Assembly (NCBI GenBank): GCA_903895725.1
Contig: CAITUV010000063.1
Coordinates: forward strand, 51,902-115,901
Length of the DNA stretch: 64,000 nt
Direction: 5' to 3'
DNA from: an uncultured Myxococcales bacterium
GTDB lineage: Bacteria > Myxococcota_A > UBA9042 > CAIXZC01
Shown: one piece after another, positions 23,038 to 61,330 of the stretch
Layout: each line of letters starts with the position of its first letter
Position numbering within the stretch: the first letter of the stretch is position 1
Made by a program: the position numbers and the translations under genes
The notes under the pieces: generated by a model
The model's input: the letters and a program-made list of their open reading frames with translations, nothing else
Told to the model about the DNA's origin: nothing
Database searches by the model: none

Positions 23038-26000
23038 ATGAAGCCCAGCATCCCAGGTTCGGCGTGTTTGGCCAGGCTCGCCAGTCCCCTCGGTTTCCCG
23101 GCGCTGATACTTTGCGTGGCGCTTTCATCGGCCTGCGGCGCCAAGTCCGACGGGTCGGACGTGCCTGCCCCGAGCGACACAGAGGGGGCGGAGGTGCCTG
23201 CCCCGAGCGACACAGAGGGGGCGGACGTGCCTGCCCCGGGCGACGTTGAAGGGTCGGACGTGCCTGCCGCGGGCGACGTCGAGGGTTCGGACGTGCCTGC
23301 CCCGAGCGACGTCGAGGGTTCGGACGTGCCTGCCCCGAGCGACACAGAGGGGGCGGATGTGCCGGACGTCTGCCCTGCTCCACCCCCCGGTCCCCACGCC
23401 CGTCTGTGCGAGATCGGCTGCGACGGCCCGGAGTCCTGTGGCGACGGCAACATGTGCCTCCAGTTCCAGGACATCGGCCAGTTCTTCTGTGCGACCCCCT
23501 GCACCGGAGTCCCCCCCTCCTGCCCGTTCGGCTTCTACTGTGCGGATGTGAGCGGCAAGTCGATGTGCGTCCCGTCGTCCGGAGATTGCCGCACCGCCCT
23601 CCTCGGAGTCGACTGCAACGCGCTCGAATCGGACCTCGCCGGCCTGTGCAAAAACGACTATCCTGTCTGCACGTCCACCGACTGGCGTCCCGGCTACTGC
23701 ACGGCTGCGTGCGATACGGACGCAGACTGCCCCGGAGCCTTCCGCCGCTGTCTGCCCACTCCGGATCCCTGCCTTCCCCCCAAGGTCTGTCGGGCCGCAT
23801 GGGAGTCGGGCCCCGAAGGCTGCGGGGTGGTCTCGGGGGACAGTGCGGGCAATGGGTCGTCCTGTCGGGACGACGACGATTGCATGCCCGACCAGGATTG
23901 CGTCAAGCCCCCGTTCGAACAGAAGCTGCGCCCCTTCTGCGCGGCCGCCTGCAACCTCGACGGCGACTGCCCTGCGGGGACCGTGTGCGAGGACGTCGCA
24001 GGAAGCAAGCGGTGCATCCCTCCCTCTTGCCAGTGCCTGCTGTCGAACGGCTCCCTCTACGATCAGGTGCTCGAGGCTCTGGAGCTCCCCCGCTGCAAAG
24101 CCATGTTCCGACGGGACTGGCTGATGCTTTTCCCCTATGCCCTCTCGCACGATCCCTGGCGCCTGCGTCACTTCCACGACCTGCACGACTTCCCCGAAGC
24201 TGCGCTGCCCGCCGCATCCGATGACGTCGCCGGCCTGGTCGCCAAGAAGGGCCCGGAGCGCGTCGTCGAGGCCATCCGAAAGAGCATGACGCTCATCGAG
24301 CGCACCGAAGACTACTCGTTTCTTCCCGCCGAAGCCCCCGACGGCCCGGCGGACGCAGTCGCCACGTTCATTCTGGCTGCGGGCGGGACCCCCGACTCGG
24401 CCAAGCTCTCCCTCGCGCTCGCCCCTCTCCCGAGCGAGCTGGCACCTGCATTCACTGACATCGTGACGGCCATGACCGGCGCCGTTTACGCCCGCAAACA
24501 GGCATCGAAGACGCTCGGTGACACCGAGCTCGAGAAGTACCTCTTCGACCTGACCCACGGCTTTGTCGCCATCCCCAAGAGCAAGCTGGGGCTTCCTGCC
24601 GGCAACAAGGACGTACAGAAGGCGCTGCTCGGCAAGTTCGATGTCGGCTTGATCGGGTCTGCTGCCATCGTGCTTGCGGAAACTGTCGAGGCCGCCTTCG
24701 ACAAGGGGCAGCTTGCCCCCGATGCCAAGTACACCGGCTTCTCCATCAAGATCGACACGCCGGCGGGCCTGATCCTCGTGGGAGACAACGGCGACACGAC
24801 CTGGGATGCCCAGGAGCTCGGTACCTCCGAGATCGCACTGCTTATCGATACAGGCGGGAACGACACCTACCGGATTCCGGCCGGAGCGAACGCCACGCTG
24901 GACAATCCCGTGTCGATTCTCATCGATCTGTCGGGCAAGGATGACTACGGATACGTCGAGGCCGCCCCGGCACTCGACCCGCTTCTGCTCCCCGAGGACG
25001 AGGACGGACGATACACCCCCAAGAAGCCGCCCAACGAGGACAACGGGCCGTTCTCTCTCTCGGACCGCAACCGTCAGGGGAGCGGACGGCTCGGGGTCGG
25101 GATGCTGTACGACCTCGGCAGCGATGTCGACCACTACGCTTCCCTCCGCCTGTCGCAGGGATTCGGCGTGCTCGGGGTAGGCGTCCTCTACGACGCCGGC
25201 GGCGACGACTTCTACGATGCCGAAGCCGCATCCCAGGGTGCGGGCATCTTCGGAATCGGAATCCTGGCCGATGACGGCGGAGACGACCTCTACACCGCGT
25301 TCCAGTGCGTGCAGGGGTTTGCCTACGCGTACGCCGTTGGCATCCTGCTGGACCAGGCGGGCAACGATGGCTACACCGCTCGTCTCGGCGACCCGGCAAT
25401 GGGCGGCTACCCGCTCTACTATAATCCGCAAAACCCTGGAAAATCAAATACTTCCATGTCTCAAGGGTTTGGTTTCGGCCGTCGGGCGGACATGACCGAC
25501 GGCGTGTTCATGTCCGGTGGATTCGGCATCCTGGTGGACCAGGCCGGGGACGACGTGTACCAGGCGGACATCTTCGGCCAGGGCGGCGGCTACTGGTTCG
25601 GTACCGGGATCCTGGCAGACCAGGGAGGCAGTGACTCCTACTCCGGACGCTGGTACGTGCAGGGAGCCGCTGCCCACTACGCCACCGGGATCCTGCTGGA
25701 GGGGAGCGGCGACGACCTGTACAACCCCGACCCGTCCATTCCGCTGCTCAACGCCAGCGTTGGCCTGGGGCACGACTGGTCGCTGGGAATCCTGCACGAC
25801 AAGGCGGGCAACGACGACTACCGTGCCCCGAGCCTTGCCGTCGGGGCTGGCAACGCGGACGGCCTCGGCTTCCTCGTCGACGGACAGGGGGACGATTCCT
25901 GGTGGTCCTCCGCCAACAACACGTTCGGGCATGCCAACGCTGGGGACTACGCCAAGTACCCGGTCTTCGAGACCTTTCCCTGCATCGGCATCTTCCTGGA

Positions 26001-44015: not shown

Positions 44016-45470
44016 TCATTTTCCACCCTCGCTCGGACTTCCCGTCTCGGCCGGCTTCTCCGGTTCCGCCGGCTTCTCGGTCCCCGTCTCGGCCGGCTTC
44101 TCAGGCTCTGCCGGCTTCCCGGTCCCGGTCTCGGTCTCGGCCGGTTTCTCCGGTTCCGCGGGCTTCTCGGTCCCCGGTTCCTCCGCGGGCTTCTCGGGCT
44201 CGGCCGGCTTCTCCGGCTCCGGCGGACGTTCCGCCTCGAGCTTCTTCATTTCCTCCATGGCCTTGATCGTCTCGCGGATACCCTTGATGCGGAGCTCCAT
44301 CTCCTTGAACTTCGGGTGCTTCTTGTCCAGCCGGCTCTGGAATTCCTGGCAGGTGCCGAGAGCGCTCTGGAGGTCCTGGATGTACTCGTGCTCCAGGATG
44401 CAGAGGTTGTACCGGCCATCGAGCTGGGAAGGATCGCGGTTGACGAGGTCCCTGAGCAGCTTGCGGGCTTCGTCGAAGCGCTCCAGTCCACGCAGCGAGA
44501 GGGCATAGGAGATCTGGAACTCGGTGTTGGCCGGCTCAGCCTTGAGCACGATTTCAAACTCCCGGGCAGCCAGCTCGAAGTCCTTGAAGTTGAGAGAAAC
44601 GGCCGCCAGGTTCTTGTGGGCATCGAGATAGGCGGAATCGGCCATGGTGGCGGCCTGGAAGAGCGTGATGGACCCCTTGATGTCATCCCGCTTGAGCTGG
44701 ATGAGGCCCATGAGGTTCAGGATCGGGGCATTGTTCTTGTCGATGCGCAGGGCGCTCTCGCAGACCAGCTCGCCGACGTCGTACTGCCCCTTGCGGAACA
44801 GGGCGATGGCCATGTTGAGGTACGCATTCATGTTGTTGGGATCGCCCAGGAGAGCGATTCGGCAGTGCTTGATCGCCTCGTCCAGATTCCCCTCATTGAG
44901 GGCCTTCTGGGACAGATAGTTCCGGGCCGGAGCGCAGTACTTGTCGGCCAGGAGCGCCTGGTCGATGAGCATGGTGGCCTTGTCGGTCTCGTTGTTGAGC
45001 GCGGCCAGCACGCCGAGCTGCGCCGTGGCTTCGGAGAAGTCCGGTGCCCGGCTCAGCACCTGCTGGAAGTAGCTGGCGGCCTTGTCGCGGGCCCCGAGGC
45101 GGAGGTAGAACACGCCAAGGTCGTACACGGCCTCGACCACGGGGTCGTTGCCGCCGGACAGGCGGAGCAGCTCGGCCTCGACCTCGCTGCCCAGGGCAAG
45201 TTGAGCCGGGTCCGCCTTGAGGCGCTCGAGTGCCTTGCGGAGCTCGGCACCGGGGCCGGTTTCCTCGATGGGAGCGGCCGCTTCGCCGACGGTCTCCTCG
45301 GTCCCCTCTCCTCCCTCGGTCGCTTCGACGTCGACGGGGGAATCGCCCGTGGGAGTCTCCTCGAGAGGGGAATCCCCGGTTGCCGGGGTCTCATCCGCAG
45401 GCTGGGAGAGGGCCGGCAACGCGGCCACGGTCAACGACAAGAAGGTTGCAATGGCGAGCAGCGTTCTCAT
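44016..45470 (-). CDS. gltE: GltE/AglT-like TPR protein with C-terminal PAEPEK repeats
   Basis: Sec signal; multiple TPRs; position between gltD and gltF; ATGA-type overlap with gltD. Confidence 0.75.
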   Translation of the reverse strand: MRTLLAIATFLSLTVAALPALSQPADETPATGDSPLEETPTGDSPVDVEATEGGEGTEETVGEAAAPIEETGPGAELRKALERLKADPAQLALGSEVEAELLRLSGGNDPVVEAVYDLGVFYLRLGARDKAASYFQQVLSRAPDFSEATAQLGVLAALNNETDKATMLIDQALLADKYCAPARNYLSQKALNEGNLDEAIKHCRIALLGDPNNMNAYLNMAIALFRKGQYDVGELVCESALRIDKNNAPILNLMGLIQLKRDDIKGSITLFQAATMADSAYLDAHKNLAAVSLNFKDFELAAREFEIVLKAEPANTEFQISYALSLRGLERFDEARKLLRDLVNRDPSQLDGRYNLCILEHEYIQDLQSALGTCQEFQSRLDKKHPKFKEMELRIKGIRETIKAMEEMKKLEAERPPEPEKPAEPEKPAEEPGTEKPAEPEKPAETETGTGKPAEPEKPAETGTEKPAEPEKPAETGSPSEGGK

Positions 45471-48400
45471 TTCGTCTCACCTCCCGGTGCGGGCGTGCCG
45501 GTCGGAGCAGCCCCGGGCGGGGTTTCTCCTGCTGGCGGCGCCGTCCCCGCCGGTGGAGTCCCTGCCGGTGGAGTCCCTGGCGGTGGAGTCCCTGCCGGCG
45601 GAGTCCCTGCCGGCGGAGTCCCCGGAGCCGGAGGTACCGGCTTGCTGCCCGACTCGTCGGCAGAGGCCTTGAACACCACCACCTTGCGCAGCTTGAAGTC
45701 GGGGGGATTGGCTCCTGCCGAGAGGAAGCCGGGCCGGACACGGTATTCCTTCATGCCCGCGAACTGGAATTCCAGCACAGACAGGCGCTGTTCCGCCTTT
45801 TCCGTGTAGTCATTGAAAATATGGTTGGTCTTGGCTTCCTCCAGGCATTTCTTGTAGGCAGCGGCGGCCTTCGTGCGGAAGGCCTGGGCAGCCTCGGAGA
45901 GCTGGAGCTTGTACTCCTCCTGTTCGTCCTCGGTCAGCCCGGGGGGCATGGGGGAGTTCTCGAAGTCGTCGCCGAACTTCTCCCAGGCAGCACCGATCTT
46001 GTACAGAGCGGCGCTGTTCCAGAAGGGCTGCTTGAGGCTGAGGACGGTGAGGTAGAGCTTCTCCGCCTCGGTGGTGATGCGGATCTTCTTCTCCGTGTCC
46101 TCCTTGAGGGTCTTGCGGGTCAGCTTGATGCTGACGGCCTCTTCGAACATGGCGTCCGCATTGTTGAAGTAGGCCCAGGCGATGGCGGTGATGCCTCGGC
46201 GGCCCACCTTCTTCTTGTCTTCGTCGGAAAGCTTCTTGAACGTGTCGATGACGGCCTCGAACTGCTTGCGGGCCTCCTTGATCTTCTTTTGCGCGGCCAG
46301 GCACTCGCCGATCTCCTGGTATGCGGCCAGGAGGAGGTTGACGCCGCCGGCAGCCCGGTACCTGGCCAGGTAGTTGTTGTAGTGCTTGATGGCCTCGGTG
46401 TACTTCCCCTCCCGCTTGTAAAGGGTGCCGATGTCGAAGAAGACGGCCGGGACCTTCGGGTCCTTCTTGAACAGGTTGATGTACCGCTCGTAGTTGCGGA
46501 TCGCCTCCTGGTTCTGGCCCAGACCCCGGCGGAACGCGGACGCGAAGATCAGCGCTTCCTTGACCTTGACCTCCTTGGGGTGGTCCTGCGCGTACTTCTC
46601 GTAGTAATCGGCTGCCTGGTCGTAGACTGCGGCCGCCCGGTAGGTCTCCGCAATCAGGTACAAGGCCCGGGGGCCGAGCTTGGAGGAGCGGGCGCAGCAG
46701 TTGTAGAGCTGGGCGTTGGCCTTGAGGGCCTTCTCGTACTTGCGGGCCCGCTGGTAGTTGACGGCCGCGTTGTAGAGCGACTTGTCCATGAGCTTGGACT
46801 CGGGGAACTTCACGGTGTAGTCCACGAAGCAATCCGCCGCAGCCTCGAACTGCTTATCGAACTCGTACTGGAAGCACCGGTTGAACTTGGCCCGGTCGCG
46901 GATCTTGTTGATGATGGCCAGCAGCTCCCCTTGGGCCAGGGCCGGCATGGCGTACAGCTTGTCGGCCCAGGCGTTGAGGCTGTTGATGTCGCGAAGCATG
47001 GTGAAGCTGGACAGGAGCAGTTTGGCCGAGTCCGGGGCCACTTCGCTGGTCGGATACTGCTCGACCAGCTCGGACAGCCGAGGGGCCGCATCCTTGAAGT
47101 GATTGAAATCATACAGGATCTTTGCCGCAGCGAACTTGGCCTGGATGATCTCTTCCGGGTCGTCCGAACCGATGCCGACGAAGCGGTCGCACGCGGTGAC
47201 CATGTTGGCATACTGCTCGGGGATCTCGGTCTCTTTGGCCTGGTCTTCTTCCTCCTCCCCCTTGACCACGGTCTTCTTCGAGGTGTCGATGACCTTGTAG
47301 TAGCACATCAGGGCGGTGTAGGCAGCCTCCTTGGCGTACTTGCCCTGGGGATCCATGGCAATCACGCGCTCGTACTCGACGACGGCCTTGCCGTAGTCTT
47401 CGAGCTGGTAGAGCAGGATGGCGTGGTTCATCAGCATCTGGTAGCGGCCCGAGCCCTCGGGGAACAGGCGCAGATAGTGGTCGTACACCTCCTGGGCCAG
47501 GAGCATGGCCTTCTTCTCCATGGTCTTCTGGGCCTCGAAGTGGTAGGTGATGGCCATAGTGCGCAGGAGCTCTTCGACCTTCTCCTTCTCCTGGGCGATG
47601 ACGGAGGAGTTCTCCTTCTGGAGAGCCTCGTACAGCTCGACCATCCGGATGATCTCAGTGCGGGTCCGGACCTTGTCCGCAGTCTTGTCCGCTGCCTCGA
47701 CGATGTTGCGCTGGTAGGTGAGGACGGTAGGCGATTCCGGCTCTTCCGCAATGATGTTGCGGTACATCGTGATCGCCTTCTCGTACTCGCCCTGGTCCAG
47801 GTACAGCCGGGCAAGCCGGGCCGACAGCACCAGGTAGATCTCCGGAGCGATTCCCTTGAAGAACGGGATGGCCTTGGCTTCCTTGCCGATCTGGCTGTAA
47901 GCCAGGACGATGTCCTTCTGGGCCTCGGCCTTCAGGCCGATTTTGCCGGTGGTGCCTTCCTTCTCGGCCTCCATGGCGTACTGGATGACTTCAACGAACT
48001 TCTTGAAAGCCTCCTCGTACTCGCCCATGTTGTAATGACACCAGGCCTGCTTGTAGATGGCAAATGGATAAATCTTAGAATCCGGGAAACTAATAACTCT
48101 TTTGTAGAATTCGATTGCGGTGTCGAACTCGTCCTGCTGGAAATAATACTCTCCAACGTTCACAAGAGCATCGGGGAGGTATTTTGATTCTGGGAAGCTC
48201 GTGATTAGTTGGGTATAGTAATTATACCCAGCTTCGTACTCGCTCATCTGGGTGCTGAAGTTGCCCAGGTAGAAGAGGACCATGTCGAGCTTGTCGTAGT
48301 CCGGGTACTTCTGCTCGATTTCCTGGAAGATCTTGATGGCCTTGCGGCGCCATTCCTTCTGCTGCTCCAGCAGGCCGTCCCGCTTGGCCTCGGCGAGGCG

Positions 48401-48817
48401 GACGCGTTCTTCGTCGTTGGCGTTCTGGGCAGCTAGGATCTCCTTGTCGAGCTCATCGGAGTAGGCCTGCATGAAGTAGCTCTCGGCCTTTTCCCAGTAG
48501 AGGTTGGCAAGACGAGCGTAGTAGACCGGCTTTTCCGGATCGTCTTCTTCGGCGTAGTCGATGATGCGGTACAGCGACTCGATGGCGGCCTGGAGCTTCT
48601 CTTCGGAAGCGCTGGGCTTGACCCGGTAGAGGTCTTCTGCGGAGAGACCCGGTCGAGGCTTCTTACCCTTGGTCTCCTCCTTCGGCTTGACCTCTTCCTT
48701 CTTGACCTCGCCTCCGGTATCGATCTTCGGGACATAGCCCTTCCCCTGCCCGTAGGACGGGACTGGGGGGGCATATGCCGCAAGCAGGACGATGGCGAAC
48801 AGTAGGGCTCGTTTCAT
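45467..48817 (-). CDS. gltD: GltD/AgmU-like large TPR protein with C-terminal PAGTP repeats
   Basis: Signal peptide; 1116 aa of TPR/YbgF-like repeats (YKQAWCHYN, LYNAAVNYQ); gene order. Confidence 0.8.
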   Translation of the reverse strand: MKRALLFAIVLLAAYAPPVPSYGQGKGYVPKIDTGGEVKKEEVKPKEETKGKKPRPGLSAEDLYRVKPSASEEKLQAAIESLYRIIDYAEEDDPEKPVYYARLANLYWEKAESYFMQAYSDELDKEILAAQNANDEERVRLAEAKRDGLLEQQKEWRRKAIKIFQEIEQKYPDYDKLDMVLFYLGNFSTQMSEYEAGYNYYTQLITSFPESKYLPDALVNVGEYYFQQDEFDTAIEFYKRVISFPDSKIYPFAIYKQAWCHYNMGEYEEAFKKFVEVIQYAMEAEKEGTTGKIGLKAEAQKDIVLAYSQIGKEAKAIPFFKGIAPEIYLVLSARLARLYLDQGEYEKAITMYRNIIAEEPESPTVLTYQRNIVEAADKTADKVRTRTEIIRMVELYEALQKENSSVIAQEKEKVEELLRTMAITYHFEAQKTMEKKAMLLAQEVYDHYLRLFPEGSGRYQMLMNHAILLYQLEDYGKAVVEYERVIAMDPQGKYAKEAAYTALMCYYKVIDTSKKTVVKGEEEEDQAKETEIPEQYANMVTACDRFVGIGSDDPEEIIQAKFAAAKILYDFNHFKDAAPRLSELVEQYPTSEVAPDSAKLLLSSFTMLRDINSLNAWADKLYAMPALAQGELLAIINKIRDRAKFNRCFQYEFDKQFEAAADCFVDYTVKFPESKLMDKSLYNAAVNYQRARKYEKALKANAQLYNCCARSSKLGPRALYLIAETYRAAAVYDQAADYYEKYAQDHPKEVKVKEALIFASAFRRGLGQNQEAIRNYERYINLFKKDPKVPAVFFDIGTLYKREGKYTEAIKHYNNYLARYRAAGGVNLLLAAYQEIGECLAAQKKIKEARKQFEAVIDTFKKLSDEDKKKVGRRGITAIAWAYFNNADAMFEEAVSIKLTRKTLKEDTEKKIRITTEAEKLYLTVLSLKQPFWNSAALYKIGAAWEKFGDDFENSPMPPGLTEDEQEEYKLQLSEAAQAFRTKAAAAYKKCLEEAKTNHIFNDYTEKAEQRLSVLEFQFAGMKEYRVRPGFLSAGANPPDFKLRKVVVFKASADESGSKPVPPAPGTPPAGTPPAGTPPPGTPPAGTPPAGTAPPAGETPPGAAPTGTPAPGGETK

Positions 48818-50437: not shown

Positions 50438-50500
50438 CCCCTCTCCCTCGTGCGCGGTGCGTAAAGCTCCCTTAAAGAACTGACACTCATAGTCTCTTAT

Positions 50501-50529
50501 TCCATAGGCGACGGGACGGGAAGTGTCAA
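50501..50529 (-). promoter_or_regulatory. Putative promoter of the glt-like operon
   Basis: Perfect TTGACA, then N17, then a weak -10 TATGGA. Confidence 0.35.
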
Positions 50530-50633
50530 GAAAAAACCGGGGTTCGAAGGGGGGGGGGAACACCCCCCTTTACAGACCGAGGCATTCTGACGCATCATCC
50601 GGGATCGTGGTCTTTTCCTGGAGGAGGTCGGCC

Positions 50634-55156: not shown

Positions 55157-58100
55157 CTACTTGGCCGGCTCGGCCGGCTTGTCAGCGGGGGCAGCGGCAG
55201 CAGGCTGGGCACCTTCGGCCGGCTTGTCAGCGGGGGCAGCGGCAGCAGGCTGGGCACCTTCGGCCGGCTTGTCAGCAGGGGCAGCGGCAGCAGGCTGGGC
55301 ACCTTCGGCCGGCTTGTCAGCGGGGGCAGCGGCAGCAGGCTGAGCGCCTTCGGCCGGCTTGTCAGCAGGGGCAGCGGCAGCAGGCTGGGCGCCTTCGGCC
55401 GGCTGAGCGGCTCCCTCGGCTTCCTTCTTCGCCTCCGCCTCGGCCTTGGCCTTCTCCTCCTCCAGCTTCTGCTTGCGGACGGAGTCGAACTGGCGGATGG
55501 CCGTGTCCGACACGATCTCGAAAAGCGGGTAGGATTCCTTGACGGCCGCGATCTGGGCCTCGTCGAGCTTCTTGTCCGCCAGGGCCTGCGCCAGAAGGCG
55601 GTCGATGGTGCCCCGGATCGGAGTGGTCAGGGCCGCATACCGGGCGAAGGTCTCGTCCGGGATTCCCCAGCGCTTCTGCGTCTCGGTGTCCCCAAACACC
55701 GCAATATCCTGGAAGAGATGCCACAAATCGTCATAATTCTCCATGAGGAAGTCGACCAGATTCGCATCAGCCGAGAAGAACTTCGCGGCATCGAAATCCT
55801 GGTTAGCGGCATCCTCGACCAGGGAGCGGGCATTCCATTTCTGGGTGGCCGGATCCTGCTCGGACCATTCGAGCTTGGCGTTGTAGACGAGGATGGCACC
55901 GAGCGTGTACTTCTCGGGCAGCTCGAGGAATTCCCGATATTCCTTGAGGTCGGCCTCGGACACGCCGCGGACGCCCTGGCTCTTGTCGAAGTCTTCCTTG
56001 GCCATGCCGAGGGCGATGCCGACGAACTTGTCGATCACGCCGCGCAGGTCGGGGTCATCCAGGGCCCACTTCTTGGTCTTGGCCAGGGTCTTCTGGACCT
56101 TGACCTCGAGGATGCCCTGCTCGACTGCGGCCTTCAGGTAGGCCCGGGCCTTGGCCTTGATATAGAACTTGCGTTCGATTTCCCTCTTCATGAGCCCGAG
56201 AATGACGGCGGAACGATAGATGTCCTGAGTGAATCCAAAAAAGTCGAGCTTCTTCTTTGTAAGCTTGTCCTCTGCCTCTTTCTGACAGGCGATCGAGGTG
56301 TTTTCGATGTACTTCTCGACCGCTGCGGTATCGCTTGCGGGCGGGTAGTCCTTGATCTTGGTGAAGCAGATGTAGCGGACGGCCTTCTGGTACTTGCGCA
56401 TGAGCTCGGCCAGCTTCTCCTTCTGCTGCTGGTAGCGCTCCTGGCGTTTCTTGATTTCGTCGCGGTAGGTCTTCTCGAGCTCGTCTGCGGTGAGGGCGAG
56501 GTCGGCGAGCATGCGCTGGCGGACCTTCTCGATCTCATCCGGGGAGAGGAGTTTGTCCTTGAGGGCGCTGACCTTGAGCTCCTGGAACTCCTTGGCCAGT
56601 GCGATGCCCTTGATGGCATTCTGGGCGACCAGGCCGAGCGTGGCGCCGGTGCCGAAGTAGTCGGAGACGTCGAGGGCCTCGGTGGCGACCTTCTGGAGGA
56701 GCTCCAGGGAGCGGGCGGTGCCGAGGTACTTGAAGCCGGCGATGGCCATGAGGCGCTTGACCTTGAGGTCGGAGCCGAGCCAGTCTTCGACCAGCGGGGT
56801 GACCTTGGCGTCGACACGCTTGTCGAGCTCGGCCATGAAGGCCGGGTCGATGAGGAAGTCGGGCTTCTCGGCCGGAGCGGCGGGGGCAGCGGCAGCGGCC
56901 TCGGCGGGCTTGTCCGCGGCGGGGGCAGCGGCGGGGGCAGCGGCAGCGGCCTCGGCGGGCTTGTCCGCGGCGGGGGCAGCAGCGGGGGCAGCGGGGGCAG
57001 CGGCGGCAGCAGCGGCGGCAGCGGCGGCCTGCTCCTTCTGCCATCGGTCCTCGAACTCCTTGAGAAGGGCTTCACGCTGTTTCTCGACGAGCGGGTCGAG
57101 GAAATCGGAAACGACTCCGTAGAAGAATTTGGCCGCGTGGAATCCCTTGACCGAGAGGTAGGCCTTCCAGCTGGTGTGCTTCTCCCCGTCGACTTCCTTC
57201 TCGATGACCAGGGGGACGTCCTTGAGTCCCTGGACCTGGGACTTTTCGAGGAAGATCTGGGCCTGCTTGAGGCGGCCCATTCCGGTGCTGTCGCGGATTT
57301 CCGGGAGCTTGGTGACGATGACAGAGAGCACCTTGTCGATGTGCTTGTTGACTTCTTTTTCCGGGACGACGACGTCGAACATCCTCTCTGCGATGATCAG
57401 GGCCTCGTACTGGCTGGCCGGGTCGATCTTGGGGTTGCGGGCGAGGTCGAGAAGATAGAGGACCGCTGCGGTGGAGTCGAACTTCTCGACGAGGACGATA
57501 TCCTGGGGGTCGAAGAAGGCTTCCTTGTCGGTATCCATCTGCTTGAACAGGGCCTTGTGCTGGCGCTTGAGGGCTTCCAGGGCATCGGCCTTGTACTTGA
57601 TGGCAACGGCCTTCCTCTCTGCGTTATCATCGTCCGGGTTGTAGAAGGAGAAGATGTACTCGATCCAGTTGAGCAGGCTCCAGGATTCGGACTCGACGCG
57701 CTTCTCAATCATGATCAGCACGTAGGGCACGGCGAAGTCGCCGAGGTCGCGGACCTGGTTGAGGGCGAGCTTCTTGCTCACCAGCTCCCAGATTTCCTCC
57801 TTGGACTTCTCGACGGCAACACCGGCAAAGGACCAGGCGGTGAGAGCCTTCTGGGAGTCGATGCGGTGCTTCTCGTCCATGGTGCCGAGGAGCTGGAACA
57901 GGCCGTCGCGGGCGCTCTGGGCCTGCTCTTCGGTGCCGGAGCTCAGCGACTCGATGAGCTTTTCCGCCACGGCGGAGGCGAGCTCTTCGGGATTGGGATA
58001 CTTGGTGACGATGCCTCGGATGCTCGCGGACCAGCCGTTCTCCACGAGAACCTGAATGGCTCGGGTCTTGATGTGAAGCGGCTGAGCTTCATCCTGCATC

Positions 58101-58255
58101 AGCTCGCCGATCCGCTTGAGCCCCTCCTCATTCTGGGACCATTTCGTGAGATCCTCGTCGGTGATGGGGCCGCACGAGGCAGCCAGGGAGACCAGGGCCG
58201 CAAACACGATTGCCACGATGCCCTTTCCTCGACTGGAGAAGCCCTGAAGTTGCAT
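55157..58255 (-). CDS. Large alpha-helical lipoprotein with Ala/Pro-rich repeat linkers
   Basis: GAGGAGGG RBS; lipobox LAASC; helical charged sequence; internal and C-terminal PA-rich repeats. Confidence 0.85.
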   Translation of the reverse strand: MQLQGFSSRGKGIVAIVFAALVSLAASCGPITDEDLTKWSQNEEGLKRIGELMQDEAQPLHIKTRAIQVLVENGWSASIRGIVTKYPNPEELASAVAEKLIESLSSGTEEQAQSARDGLFQLLGTMDEKHRIDSQKALTAWSFAGVAVEKSKEEIWELVSKKLALNQVRDLGDFAVPYVLIMIEKRVESESWSLLNWIEYIFSFYNPDDDNAERKAVAIKYKADALEALKRQHKALFKQMDTDKEAFFDPQDIVLVEKFDSTAAVLYLLDLARNPKIDPASQYEALIIAERMFDVVVPEKEVNKHIDKVLSVIVTKLPEIRDSTGMGRLKQAQIFLEKSQVQGLKDVPLVIEKEVDGEKHTSWKAYLSVKGFHAAKFFYGVVSDFLDPLVEKQREALLKEFEDRWQKEQAAAAAAAAAAAPAAPAAAPAADKPAEAAAAAPAAAPAADKPAEAAAAAPAAPAEKPDFLIDPAFMAELDKRVDAKVTPLVEDWLGSDLKVKRLMAIAGFKYLGTARSLELLQKVATEALDVSDYFGTGATLGLVAQNAIKGIALAKEFQELKVSALKDKLLSPDEIEKVRQRMLADLALTADELEKTYRDEIKKRQERYQQQKEKLAELMRKYQKAVRYICFTKIKDYPPASDTAAVEKYIENTSIACQKEAEDKLTKKKLDFFGFTQDIYRSAVILGLMKREIERKFYIKAKARAYLKAAVEQGILEVKVQKTLAKTKKWALDDPDLRGVIDKFVGIALGMAKEDFDKSQGVRGVSEADLKEYREFLELPEKYTLGAILVYNAKLEWSEQDPATQKWNARSLVEDAANQDFDAAKFFSADANLVDFLMENYDDLWHLFQDIAVFGDTETQKRWGIPDETFARYAALTTPIRGTIDRLLAQALADKKLDEAQIAAVKESYPLFEIVSDTAIRQFDSVRKQKLEEEKAKAEAEAKKEAEGAAQPAEGAQPAAAAPADKPAEGAQPAAAAPADKPAEGAQPAAAAPADKPAEGAQPAAAAPADKPAEGAQPAAAAPADKPAEPAK
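55172..55396 (-). repeat. In-frame 45-bp tandem repeat, 5 copies (EGAQPAAAAPADKPA)
   Basis: Direct inspection. Confidence 0.93.
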
Positions 58256-58442: not shown

Positions 58443-58988
58443 ATGCGGCGGCTTTCCATCCCCGGACTCATGGTGCTTGCGGCCCTTGTGGCCACCGCAG
58501 TCACCGTGCTGGCCTTTTTTCCGCCGGAGAAGCCCCAGATCCGCCAGTATCGGATCGGTGAGCAGGGGTTGGCCGAGGAAGAACGGCTCCGCCGCGTGCA
58601 CCTGGAGGAGATCGTCCTCCTGGAGATCGACGGCCAACCCATCACGGCCCAGGAGCTGGCCGACGCGCTGGGGCGCCTTCCCCCGTACCAGCGCTACTAC
58701 TACTCCAACCCGGACAAGGTCGAGGTCTTTGCCCAGAACTACGCGCTTCTGCACCTGCTTGCCCGGCAGGCGGTCGATTCCGGGGTCGATGTCGACCCCT
58801 ACGTGCGGCTGGCCCTGGAAGAAGAGCTGGCCGGTCGATACAAGTCCGATTGGCTGGCTGCCGAAGTCAAGGCGTCGGATCTGCCGGCCGCGGAGAAGGA
58901 CTCCTCTGCCCGGGCCGCATTGCTTGAAGAACGGCGGCAGGCCGCCTGGGCGGCCCATCTTCGAAAGCTGACCCCCAAGAACCCATGA
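58443..58988 (+). CDS. Membrane-anchored SurA/PrsA N-domain-like protein without a parvulin domain
   Basis: TM; LLEIDGQPITAQEL..LL..QAVDSGVD.DP.V. Confidence 0.7.
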   Translation: MRRLSIPGLMVLAALVATAVTVLAFFPPEKPQIRQYRIGEQGLAEEERLRRVHLEEIVLLEIDGQPITAQELADALGRLPPYQRYYYSNPDKVEVFAQNYALLHLLARQAVDSGVDVDPYVRLALEEELAGRYKSDWLAAEVKASDLPAAEKDSSARAALLEERRQAAWAAHLRKLTPKNP

Positions 58989-58997
58989 GGTAGCTCC

Positions 58998-60296
58998 ATG
59001 TCTGGATTCCGTGCCCTGATTCCTTGTCTCGTGGCCGCGCTGATGGGGACCGCATCCTGCGGTCGGACTCAGGCCCCTGCCAACCCCGCTCCGGCTCCAA
59101 CCGATCCGGCCAAGGGGGCGGCCTCGAGCGAGGCATCCACGGGACCCGCCGCCCCCGGTGAGCCGGCCGGCAAGACCGACAACGCTGTCGCTGCCGGGGA
59201 GGCCGGAAAGGCCGGGGCTCAGGCCGAGGCCGGCAAGGAACCGCAGGCCGAGGCCTCCGGCGAGGCCGGCAAGACGGAGGAAGAACGTCCTGCACAGGGA
59301 GCGGAGGCATCTCCCGAGGCGGACAGGGCCCGGAAGACCCGACAGCTCGCCTCCGAGCATGCCCCGGCCCCGGGCGAGCCCGTGGTCGCCTGGACCGAGG
59401 GGAAGAAGGTCTTCCGGCCTGACTTCGAAAGCTACGTCGCCCGCTTGCCCGTGTTCCAGAAACGGGAGCTGGCATCGCTCGAGAAGAAACGGGAGCTCCT
59501 GCTCAACTACATCAAGTTCGACACCCTGGCCGACCTCGCCGTGAAGGAAGGGCTCGACCGCGACCCGGACGTGCTGCTCGCTGCCAGAACTGAGATGGTA
59601 AAAAAGTATATCCAAAAGAAGTTTGGTGAAGATGTAAAGGTTGATGTATCTGAATCGGAAATAGTTCAACAATATGAAAGAGATATATCCATGTACAATA
59701 AACCCGAGAGGGTCCGGGTGAGTCACATCCTCCTGCCCGACCGGGTCCAGGCTCAAAACGTGCTCCAGGAGCTCAAGAGCGTGCTGGCCTCCCCCGATAC
59801 CAGCACCCGGCAGGTGTTCCGGGATTTCGTCCGCAAGTACAGCGTGGACGAAGCAACCAACAGCCGGGGAGGGGATCTCCTGTTCTTCTCGCGCGACGGC
59901 CAGGTGGACGGGAGCGAGGTGAAGGTGGACCCCGCTGTCGTCTCTGCAGCGTTCGCGATGCAGAACATCGACCAGATCAGCGACGTGATCGAAGGGAAGG
60001 ACGGGTTCCACATCCTGACGCTCATGAATCGCCGGGAGAAAGTGGAGAAGCCGCTCGAATCGGTCCGGGAGGACATCCGGCAGAACATCGCCCGGGAGAA
60101 GCTGGATCGGGACCGCCGGGAGTTCATGGACACGCTGGTCGATTTCTCGGCCTGGCAGGTCGAGGCAGGGGAGCTCAACAAGGTGGTGGTCGAGGATGTT
60201 CCGCCGTCGCCGGCTGCGGTCAAGGAGCGGGTGGACAGCATCAAGGCCCCGGGGAAGGAAGCCCCCGCCACCAAGGAAGGGGAGCAGGTGCAATGA
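58998..60296 (+). CDS. PpiC/parvulin-type peptidyl-prolyl isomerase lipoprotein
   Basis: Lipobox TASC; PERVRVSHIL, SVDEATNSRGGDL, AAFAM, GFHIL. Confidence 0.92.
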   Translation: MSGFRALIPCLVAALMGTASCGRTQAPANPAPAPTDPAKGAASSEASTGPAAPGEPAGKTDNAVAAGEAGKAGAQAEAGKEPQAEASGEAGKTEEERPAQGAEASPEADRARKTRQLASEHAPAPGEPVVAWTEGKKVFRPDFESYVARLPVFQKRELASLEKKRELLLNYIKFDTLADLAVKEGLDRDPDVLLAARTEMVKKYIQKKFGEDVKVDVSESEIVQQYERDISMYNKPERVRVSHILLPDRVQAQNVLQELKSVLASPDTSTRQVFRDFVRKYSVDEATNSRGGDLLFFSRDGQVDGSEVKVDPAVVSAAFAMQNIDQISDVIEGKDGFHILTLMNRREKVEKPLESVREDIRQNIAREKLDRDRREFMDTLVDFSAWQVEAGELNKVVVEDVPPSPAAVKERVDSIKAPGKEAPATKEGEQVQ

Positions 60297-61330
60297 GAGC
60301 GGCCTGGATGGCAATCGTGCTCCTGGCGTTGCCGGCATCGGTCCGGTCGCAGGAGAGTCCTCCCGGGGAGCTCCTGGACGGGATCGTGGCGGTGGTCGGA
60401 GAAGAGCCCGTTACCCGCTCGGAGCTGTCCGAGATGCTGGTCTTCCAGGGGCGTCTGCTCAAGGCCCGCAAGGATGCCGGAATGTCGGCCGAAGAGGCGG
60501 ACCGGGAGTTCCACAAGCTGCAGGAGGAGACCTTGCGGCACCTGGTGGACAACCGCCTGATCCTGTTGGCGGCCAAGGCGGACGGGATGTCGGTCACGGA
60601 CGAGGTCCGGCGCCGGATCGAGAAGCTGAAGGCCTCGTTTTCCGGGGATGTGAAGCGACTGGAGAAGTACCTGTCCGCTCAGGGGTTCGTGTCGCTGGCC
60701 GACTACGAGCGGCAGATGGGGGAGGAGATGCTGCGGCAGCGGATGGTGTTTGCCCAGGTGAGGCCGCGGGCCGAGATCTCCGAGCGGGAGGCGCAGGCTG
60801 CGTTCGAGGAGCGGTTCCTGGGCAAGCGGGCCGAGGCACTGGAGTGTTCCGGGGCCGTGGTGTCGCAGTATGCGCTCGAGCAGGTCTGGTTCCCCCTGCC
60901 GGAGGATGCCGGGCCCGAGCGCGTGCTGGCCGCCTACGGGCAGGCCTACTCGTGTTACCTGCGGATTGCCCGGGGCGAGTTCGGAGGGGCCGAGGCTCCG
61001 GACCGGTGTGCGGGGGAGGTGACCCCTCAGTTCGGCGACCTGGGCGAGGTGGACGAGACCAAGACGTTCGAGCGCTCCTTCCAGGATGCCTTCGATGAGC
61101 TTCGAAAGACCCCCGGGGCGCAAAGCTCGGCCCCGTTCCTGCACAAGGACGGAGTTCGGATCCTGCGGATCACCGGAACGCGGGAGGAGTGCATCGACGA
61201 CCCGGAGGAGGTGGCGCAGCTTCGGGACACGCTGAAGGCCCGCCTGGAAGAGGAGAAGTTCGAGAAGGTCCTCGAGTGGTGGCTCGACGAGCTTCGGGGG
61301 AAATTCCGCGTGGAGCTCAAGCCCCTTTGA
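60293..61330 (+). CDS. SurA-like periplasmic chaperone with degenerate parvulin domain
   Basis: Signal peptide; LLDGIVAVVGEEPVTRSE; LVDNRLIL; final W..ELR..F.VE; catalytic His motifs not seen. Confidence 0.82.
   Translation: MRAAWMAIVLLALPASVRSQESPPGELLDGIVAVVGEEPVTRSELSEMLVFQGRLLKARKDAGMSAEEADREFHKLQEETLRHLVDNRLILLAAKADGMSVTDEVRRRIEKLKASFSGDVKRLEKYLSAQGFVSLADYERQMGEEMLRQRMVFAQVRPRAEISEREAQAAFEERFLGKRAEALECSGAVVSQYALEQVWFPLPEDAGPERVLAAYGQAYSCYLRIARGEFGGAEAPDRCAGEVTPQFGDLGEVDETKTFERSFQDAFDELRKTPGAQSSAPFLHKDGVRILRITGTREECIDDPEEVAQLRDTLKARLEEEKFEKVLEWWLDELRGKFRVELKPL

Follow-up and report, generated by a model that had tools for sequence, protein, structure and literature searches.

AT-rich xenogeneic islands are bound by silencers of the H-NS, MvaT and Lsr2 class and hide intragenic promoters. 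In GC-rich Streptomyces, rare TTA codons, which depend on bldA, serve as regulatory devices. Rare-codon clusters of the kind considered here were described by Clarke and Clark in 2008 (PMC2565806), and conservation of rarity over codon identity was described by Chaney et al. in 2017 (PMC5438181). We have analysed an AT-rich cluster of rare codons inside a PrsA-like peptidyl-prolyl isomerase (PPIase) gene of an uncultured member of the Myxococcota. The gene lies in a 64-kb stretch of DNA (G000:C63:51902-115901), referred to below as the window, and the source genome, G000, is a 7.06-Mb draft in 88 contigs with 65.6% GC and 4% contamination that resembles a metagenome-assembled genome. The cluster, hereafter the PPIase island, is real, native in origin and recurrent in position, with turnover of codon identity. 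The best-supported description is that of a position-conserved rare-codon cluster, a kind already known. The island and its host gene are as follows:

59586..59702, plus strand: AT-rich rare-codon island encoding the peptide RTEMVKKYIQKKFGEDVKVDVSESEIVQQYERDISMYNK, with an excess of A/T-ending codons and low GC

58998..60296, plus strand: host gene, a PrsA/PEB4/SurA-like parvulin PPIase and probable lipoprotein, assigned from Pfam, relatives in the PDB and an AlphaFold model

The island comprises codons 197-235 and is in frame with the 432-aa open reading frame (ORF) of the host gene. A/T-ending codons account for 28 of its 39 codons against an expectation of 5.4 +/- 2.1 (Poisson-binomial P=1.9e-17). 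This expectation was built on amino-acid-specific codon usage in 2,584 long G000 ORFs, and amino-acid composition is therefore no explanation for the island. Its rare codons include AGA (two), ATA (two), GTA (three) and CAA (three), each of which makes up 2-7% of the codons for its amino acid genome-wide. Over 120 nt, GC drops to 33% from ~65% in the flanks. The 90-nt minimum of 27.8% takes a tied rank of 4-6 among AT-rich loci of the genome, and the island holds more AT than nearly all intergenic DNA of that genome. A first-pass annotation of the window had reported 28 A/T-ending codons among 39 and a TACAAT hexamer at 59694-59699, inside the island; the sequence reads as it was quoted, and both count and hexamer are confirmed. 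Its view that peptide composition fails to explain the island is upheld by the P value above, and its statement that no template copy is present by our failure to find a second copy of the island in the G000 genome.

The same annotation had considered that such islands might be assembly chimeras or lineage-private imports from low-GC donors. Five independent contigs carry the whole PPIase gene, island included, without a single base difference. Their sources are two samples assembled as ENA scaffolds, two k141 (MEGAHIT-style) assemblies and one Logan assembly, and they thus span three pipelines (SPAdes-type, MEGAHIT-type and Logan) and at least two samples. The island is not private to this lineage either. 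The proportion of A/T-ending codons (AT3) at the aligned 39 codons was tested against the rest of each ortholog's gene, and an excess at the same place was found in L018/L051, L019 and G007:

G000: AT3 28/37, p=3e-15

L018 and L051 (one organism): AT3 17/37, p about 1e-6

L019: AT3 19/37, p=2e-5

G007: AT3 21/34, p=6e-4

G003: AT3 19/38, p=0.056, borderline

G001 (same genus): AT3 2/37, no excess

G004, G009, G011 and G005: no AT3 excess

In a maximum-likelihood tree, the clade (L001, L018, (L002=G001, L019)) received 99/100 support, with island-less G001 inside the island-bearing clade. Because it is nested among island bearers, G001 most likely lost the island. A similar pairing is seen in G007, which has an island, and its sister G011, which has none, and the islands of L018 and L019 are partial. 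The opening of the island peptide, RTEMVKKYIQKKFGED, is confined to the genus-level clade (L001, L002 and L018/L051), and L019 has KKF for KKY. Compared with L018, the island peptide is 77% identical and the whole protein 71%; conservation is on par with that of the flanks. All loci of the clade have 61-66% GC.

Synonymous sites have turned over almost to saturation between G000 and G001. In the gene for a TPR protein, 605 codons are identical as against 548 expected under independence, and in ordinary sequence the probability that a codon is A/T-ending in G001, given that it is A/T-ending in G000, is 0.19-0.24 over a baseline of 0.10-0.11. Islands in this TPR gene and in gyrB are shared between the two genomes:

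47979..48264, minus strand: second strong island of the window, in the gene for a 1116-aa TPR protein (45467..48817, minus strand), with 36/94 A/T-ending codons against 13.9 expected, P=1e-8

L032:1606-1665 (G000:C31:75847-75906): gyrB island of 20 codons on the invariant Toprim motif, with AGA (two), TTA, AGT, ACA and CTT (two)

The 3' half of the TPR island has 15/35 A/T-ending codons in G000 and again in G001 (p=1e-4 and 5e-6, respectively), and the 5' half is an island in G000 only. In the gyrB Toprim island, 14/20 codons are A/T-ending in G000 (p=7e-10) and 16/20 in G001 (p=6.5e-13), with 11 of the 20 codons differing between them; this island is absent from eight other genera. The A/T-ending positions of shared islands lack codon-by-codon correspondence, which indicates that a regional state has been kept and codon identity has not. 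Turnover in the remaining parts of the genes leads us to estimate a per-lineage memory of ~0.39, at which a decaying ancestral island would be expected to show ~0.39-0.45 AT3. The gyrB island stands at 0.7-0.8 AT3, above the range estimated from simple decay.

The composition of the islands looks like that of DNA altered in place. In the pooled islands, CTT makes up 0.44 of Leu codons and TTA 0.11, and four-fold sites hold A and T in equal measure (157 and 155); this argues for third-position change in place and is unlike the usage of a low-GC donor. First-position synonymous changes in islands are likewise AT-ward (AGA, TTA, TTG). AT-ending rare codons are raised 5-20-fold in islands as against only 1.6-2-fold for the GC-ending rare codons AGG and TTG. 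Across G000, GC at third codon positions (GC3) tends to fall as GC at codon positions 1 and 2 (GC12) rises (r=-0.43). Low-GC12 windows are normally over-compensated (GC3 0.91 vs 0.857 expected), which suggests a pressure on local total GC, and ~3% of them are islands instead. Windows with GC3 <0.5 are ~100-300-fold commoner among low-GC12 windows. The PPIase island sits at the GC12 minimum of its gene and the gyrB island does not sit at one. Low GC12 is thus neither sufficient nor necessary for an island, because only ~3% of such windows are islands and the gyrB island lies off the GC12 minimum. We also considered a "bistable threshold", at which GC3 collapses where GC12 is lowest. This idea fits the PPIase island and was rejected because gyrB contradicts it, as does an equally low window of the TPR gene in which GC3 is 0.97.

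Searches for signals at the level of DNA or RNA were largely negative. No sigma-70 -35/-10 pair at 16-18 nt spacing was found in the PPIase island; the best score was 7-8 of 12. In the island set, promoter-like pairs were not enriched on either strand relative to codon-resampled controls in which peptide and island codon usage were preserved. TACAAT was rejected as a sigma-70 promoter, as it has no usable -35. The integration host factor (IHF) consensus WATCAANNNNTTR had 0 matches in the 64-kb window, and a search for a motif shared among 19 clean islands returned only generic AT k-mers. Compared with within-island synonymous permutations, A/T runs were not longer and A-tracts not commoner, and TpA steps were fewer (234 vs 252.6 +/- 5, P about 0.001). 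The island matched no Rfam family, and the fold of the island region is not unusual (z=-1.2). Two functions proposed in the first-pass annotation therefore lose ground: nucleoid-protein or histone-like positioning, in view of the missing IHF consensus, shared motif and tract excess and of the TpA depletion, and cryptic transcription, in view of the lack of sigma-70 enrichment over codon-resampled controls. Its third proposal, co-translational pausing for exported proteins, may still hold.

Two repeats were noted at the island in passing. A 15-nt direct repeat lies near its ends (59600-59614 and 59677-59691; AAAAAAGTATATCCA / AAAGAGATATATCCA) with 80% identity, which by estimate is within chance at this composition. 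GC-rich complementary arms bracket the island at 59562-59574 and 59712-59719 / 59735-59747 (ACCCGGAC / GTCCGGGT) and pair in the minimum-energy fold; the arms exist because the DPD codons are the reverse complement of the VRV codons. A role for them as a functional RNA stem was rejected, since island-less G001 has arms of the same strength, as part of a genus clade in which they are strong throughout, and the folding z is -1.2.

We tentatively favour the explanation that the PPIase island is a native, maintained rare-codon cluster that acts through translational slowdown, and we hold it with somewhat less than even confidence. Synonymous changes would have produced the island within the gene itself, in the lineage ancestral to a genus-level clade of uncultured Myxococcota, and from then on it would have been kept as a regional A/T-ending rare-codon state and not as particular bases, while being extended in the lineage of this genome and erased in the sister lineage G001. 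Ribosomes would be predicted to slow over ~39 codons, among them the rarest ones in the genome (ATA, AGA, GTA, CAA and AAA), and the slowdown would fall at the point where the chaperone arm's final helices are being made and the parvulin domain is next. The AlphaFold model, which is confident for residues 130 to 400, assigns the island codons to helix 197-209, a loop, and helices 219-228 and 230-233. In this model the first island codon coincides with the first residue of helix 197-209, and the last one falls just ahead of strand 238-246, the first strand of the parvulin domain. The tRNA genes that match the A-ending codons AGA, CAA, GAA, AAA, TTA and GTA are single-copy; the reader of ATA is inseparable from tRNA-Met by anticodon. 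The island has the synonymous excess that characterizes rare-codon clusters, and its rarity recurs at the aligned position with differing codons. We infer that a local force, either selection for rarity or selection for AT, maintains the island and that the island acts through translation rate. That the island is specifically a selected translational attenuator is possible, and we would put this a shade lower than the explanation as a whole.

Several observations weigh against this explanation. The island has been lost completely in G001 and is absent in other family members, so any function would have to be dispensable. The protein is exported and is expected to fold after export, which weakens the rationale of co-translational folding. 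Island lengths range from 14 to >120 codons, in very different proteins. The GC3 of islands (~0.25-0.35), together with A~T at four-fold sites, is what a neutral equilibrium under AT-biased mutation would be expected to give, and rarity and AT-richness are inseparable in this genome.

The GC3 and four-fold composition also speaks for the main rival, a non-adaptive local lapse. The force that raises GC, be it GC-biased gene conversion or selection, would skip a patch of ~100 nt, which would then sit at an AT-biased equilibrium with no function. Such a lapse accounts for the GC3 and four-fold composition, for Leu being mostly CTT, one step from CTC or CTG, and not TTA, and for the lack of any motif, promoter, tract or structure signal. 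It is also in keeping with gain and loss among close relatives, with variable island length and with the partial islands in L018 and L019. The GC-raising force itself is real, as prokaryote GC is generally above the prediction from mutation bias alone according to PMC6867656. Only 0.05% of all 90-nt windows in the genome, coding or not, are at <=40% GC, however, so this force acts almost everywhere, and low-GC12 windows are normally over-compensated. In both G000 and G001, moreover, the gyrB and TPR islands stand far above the AT3 estimated from simple decay. We know of no mechanism that would exempt a patch of 45-200 nt at a fixed gene position, and a lapse lacks one for the persistence of position; on the whole we regard it as unlikely, though a serious contender. 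An AT-rich element that works as DNA or RNA, whether by nucleating a nucleoid protein, as a melting site, as an intragenic or antisense promoter, or as unstructured AU-rich mRNA for RNase E or the ribosome, strikes us as distinctly unlikely. The PPIase locus is among the 4-6 most AT-rich of the genome, low GC3 is tied to low GC12 with the PPIase island at the minimum of its gene, first-position synonymous changes run AT-ward, and TACAAT is present, all of which would suit such an element. It is opposed by the absence of a sigma-70 pair or enrichment, of the IHF consensus and of a shared k-mer motif, by the lack of any excess of A/T runs or A-tracts, by the significant depletion of TpA, by the unremarkable Rfam and folding results, and by the position of the gyrB island off the GC12 minimum.

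Import, chimera, diversity-generating retroelement (DGR) and recoding readings are essentially excluded. Gene conversion from the homologous gene of a low-GC donor would account for the abrupt edges and for low GC at all three codon positions. The peptide signature is clade-specific, with divergence no greater than in the flanks and clade members at 61-66% GC; codon usage in islands differs from that of low-GC genomes in its CTT and TTA fractions; weaker islands with different codons occur at the same place in relatives; and an exact-match search of metagenome contigs did not find the 37-mer. Peptide signature, codon usage and tree together rule out a low-GC donor patch, and we consider any short horizontally acquired patch highly improbable. 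A chimera or consensus artefact might be suspected in a draft of 88 contigs with 4% contamination that resembles a metagenome-assembled genome; given five identical contigs from different assemblers and samples, and a preserved frame and homologous peptide, it is the least credible of all. A DGR variable region was rejected in the absence of a template and of a second island copy in the genome. As to recoding, the island contains a candidate slippery sequence:

59600..59606, plus strand: A AAA AAG heptamer in the zero frame (gtA AAA AAG), of the dnaX slippery type and probably a by-product of A-rich recoding

The heptamer is in the right frame with the X XXY YYZ pattern, and the -1 frame entered from it reaches TGA 59627-59629 after 7 codons; the predicted product would be a chaperone arm that lacks the parvulin domain. 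Alternatively, the in-frame ATG at 59691, whose Met is conserved in the genus clade, might start a separate parvulin protein. Against both, the heptamer is absent in relatives (L002 and L051 read GTC AAG AAG, and third positions in L018 are G/C-ending), no stimulatory structure is evident (z=-1.2), island-bearing G007 has Thr for the Met at 59691, and neither a frameshift nor an internal start needs 117 nt of altered codons. A recoding signal is accordingly about as improbable as import.

The protein that carries the island is laid out as a low-complexity linker, an N-terminal chaperone arm, a parvulin domain and a C-terminal helix. The ORF matches the Pfam families Rotamase_2, Rotamase and Rotamase_3 (PpiC-type), and its relatives among solved structures are 3rfw (Cbf2/PEB4), HP0175 and PrsA. 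The protein is probably a lipoprotein, because its N-terminus is signal-peptide-like and Cys21 is nearly invariant; the low-complexity linker follows. The neighbouring gene is also of chaperone type:

60293..61330, plus strand: SurA_N-like chaperone gene downstream (Pfam SurA_N_3), with its start overlapping the PPIase stop (ATGA)

The order of PPIase gene and SurA_N-like gene is also found in relatives' contigs. At 58446-61330, three chaperone-type genes stand in a row, namely a 181-aa ORF, the PpiC lipoprotein and the SurA_N-like gene. The 181-aa ORF has no Pfam match, and its counterpart in relatives resembles the N-terminal arm of the PPIase.

Besides the PPIase and TPR islands, the window contains the following:

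25398..25482, plus strand: moderate island in the gene for a large secreted-type protein, peptide YNPQNPGKSNTSMSQGFG, with 14/28 A/T-ending codons against 4.2 expected, P=7e-6

50472-50537: moderate island, P=1e-5

55687-55784 and 56198-56296: weak islands in the gene at 55157..58255, P=0.016 and 1e-3, mostly due to low GC at codon positions 1 and 2

The island at 25398-25482 was recovered by a genome-wide scan too, and the host of the island at 47979-48264 matches TPR Pfam families. The two weak islands are driven mostly by amino acids. Their gene (55157-58255, minus strand) encodes a 1032-aa protein with no Pfam match, with Ala/Pro-rich tandem repeats at the C-terminus (AAAPADKPAEGAQP) and an internal AAAAPAAAPAADKPAE repeat. 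The claim of at least five islands in 64 kb thus survives as two strong and two moderate ones, and not as five of equal standing, given the weakness of the pair in the 55157..58255 gene. Genome-wide, a 90-nt GC of <=40-42% is reached by 52-60 loci in 7.06 Mb, of which ~33-35 are clean intragenic islands, seen as sharp dips within sequence of 64-70% GC. These counts are rough, because the first gene-calling scan gave false 5'-end islands from over-extended ORFs and gene calls also missed the PPIase and TPR genes. Island hosts are varied and include Cys-rich secreted proteins, a membrane transporter-like protein, a LysM protein, a lipase-like protein, a kinase, a PriA-like helicase and GyrB. The suggestion that islands occur in unrelated envelope-protein genes holds for the unrelatedness of the genes and fails for the envelope, since GyrB and the PriA-like helicase are cytoplasmic and there is therefore no clear restriction to envelope proteins. 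About 35-60 heterogeneous patches in 7.06 Mb likewise fall short of the "genome-wide layer" that had been proposed. Both window islands, PPIase and TPR, begin near codon 195; genome-wide, a hand count gave no convincing preference for this start (16 observed vs ~11 expected). Sharp AT dips also lie a few kb apart in places, with three on G000:C32:112251-118334 and two on G000:C13:114882-121853. One of the latter is a 488-nt patch with a minimum of 21% GC that encodes a transmembrane-like N-terminal region.

Taken alone, the PPIase island is one more rare-codon cluster with a putative function. It is nevertheless a clean native example that is independent of the assembler and stands at the same position after synonymous turnover, and a congener offers the natural "off" state. 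Pairs of this on/off kind are suited to tests of selection on rare-codon clusters in GC-rich bacteria and of the force that holds GC3 near 0.9 elsewhere. A broader idea, which we regard as speculative and rather improbable, is that GC-rich bacteria possess distinct short intragenic elements defined by composition only, actively held at the AT-rich extreme at fixed positions of core genes, in opposition to a GC-raising force that works genome-wide, and switching on and off between sister species. If this were true, such elements (PrsA-like, TPR and gyrB Toprim) would point either to counter-selection at the locus or to its being exempt from GC-biased conversion, and the long-standing question of what keeps bacterial genomes GC-rich would become directly testable at defined loci.

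Compared with known systems, the PPIase island resembles short-patch mosaic genes and DGR diversification in being a sharp-edged deviant patch within a gene, but its peptide is conserved and clade-typical, with no donor, template copy or diversification. Like xenogeneic islands bound by silencers, it is a sharp AT stretch in a GC-rich genome and would attract AT-preferring proteins and RNA polymerase; unlike them, it is native, measures 117 nt, lies in a core gene and shows no promoter, TpA or tract enrichment. As with the bldA-dependent TTA codons of Streptomyces, particular places in a GC-rich genome carry A/T-rich codons that it otherwise hardly uses, although here many different rare codons are involved, no single regulated tRNA is, and the essential gyrB is affected as well. 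From the rare-codon clusters described previously (PMC2565806, PMC5438181) the island differs in its shallow conservation, which is at genus level with loss in a congener, in being among the most AT-rich DNA of its genome, in its exported host, and in the inseparability of rarity and AT. It resembles them as a large, in-frame synonymous cluster in which rarity recurs while codon identity shifts, and in its position between small structural motifs.

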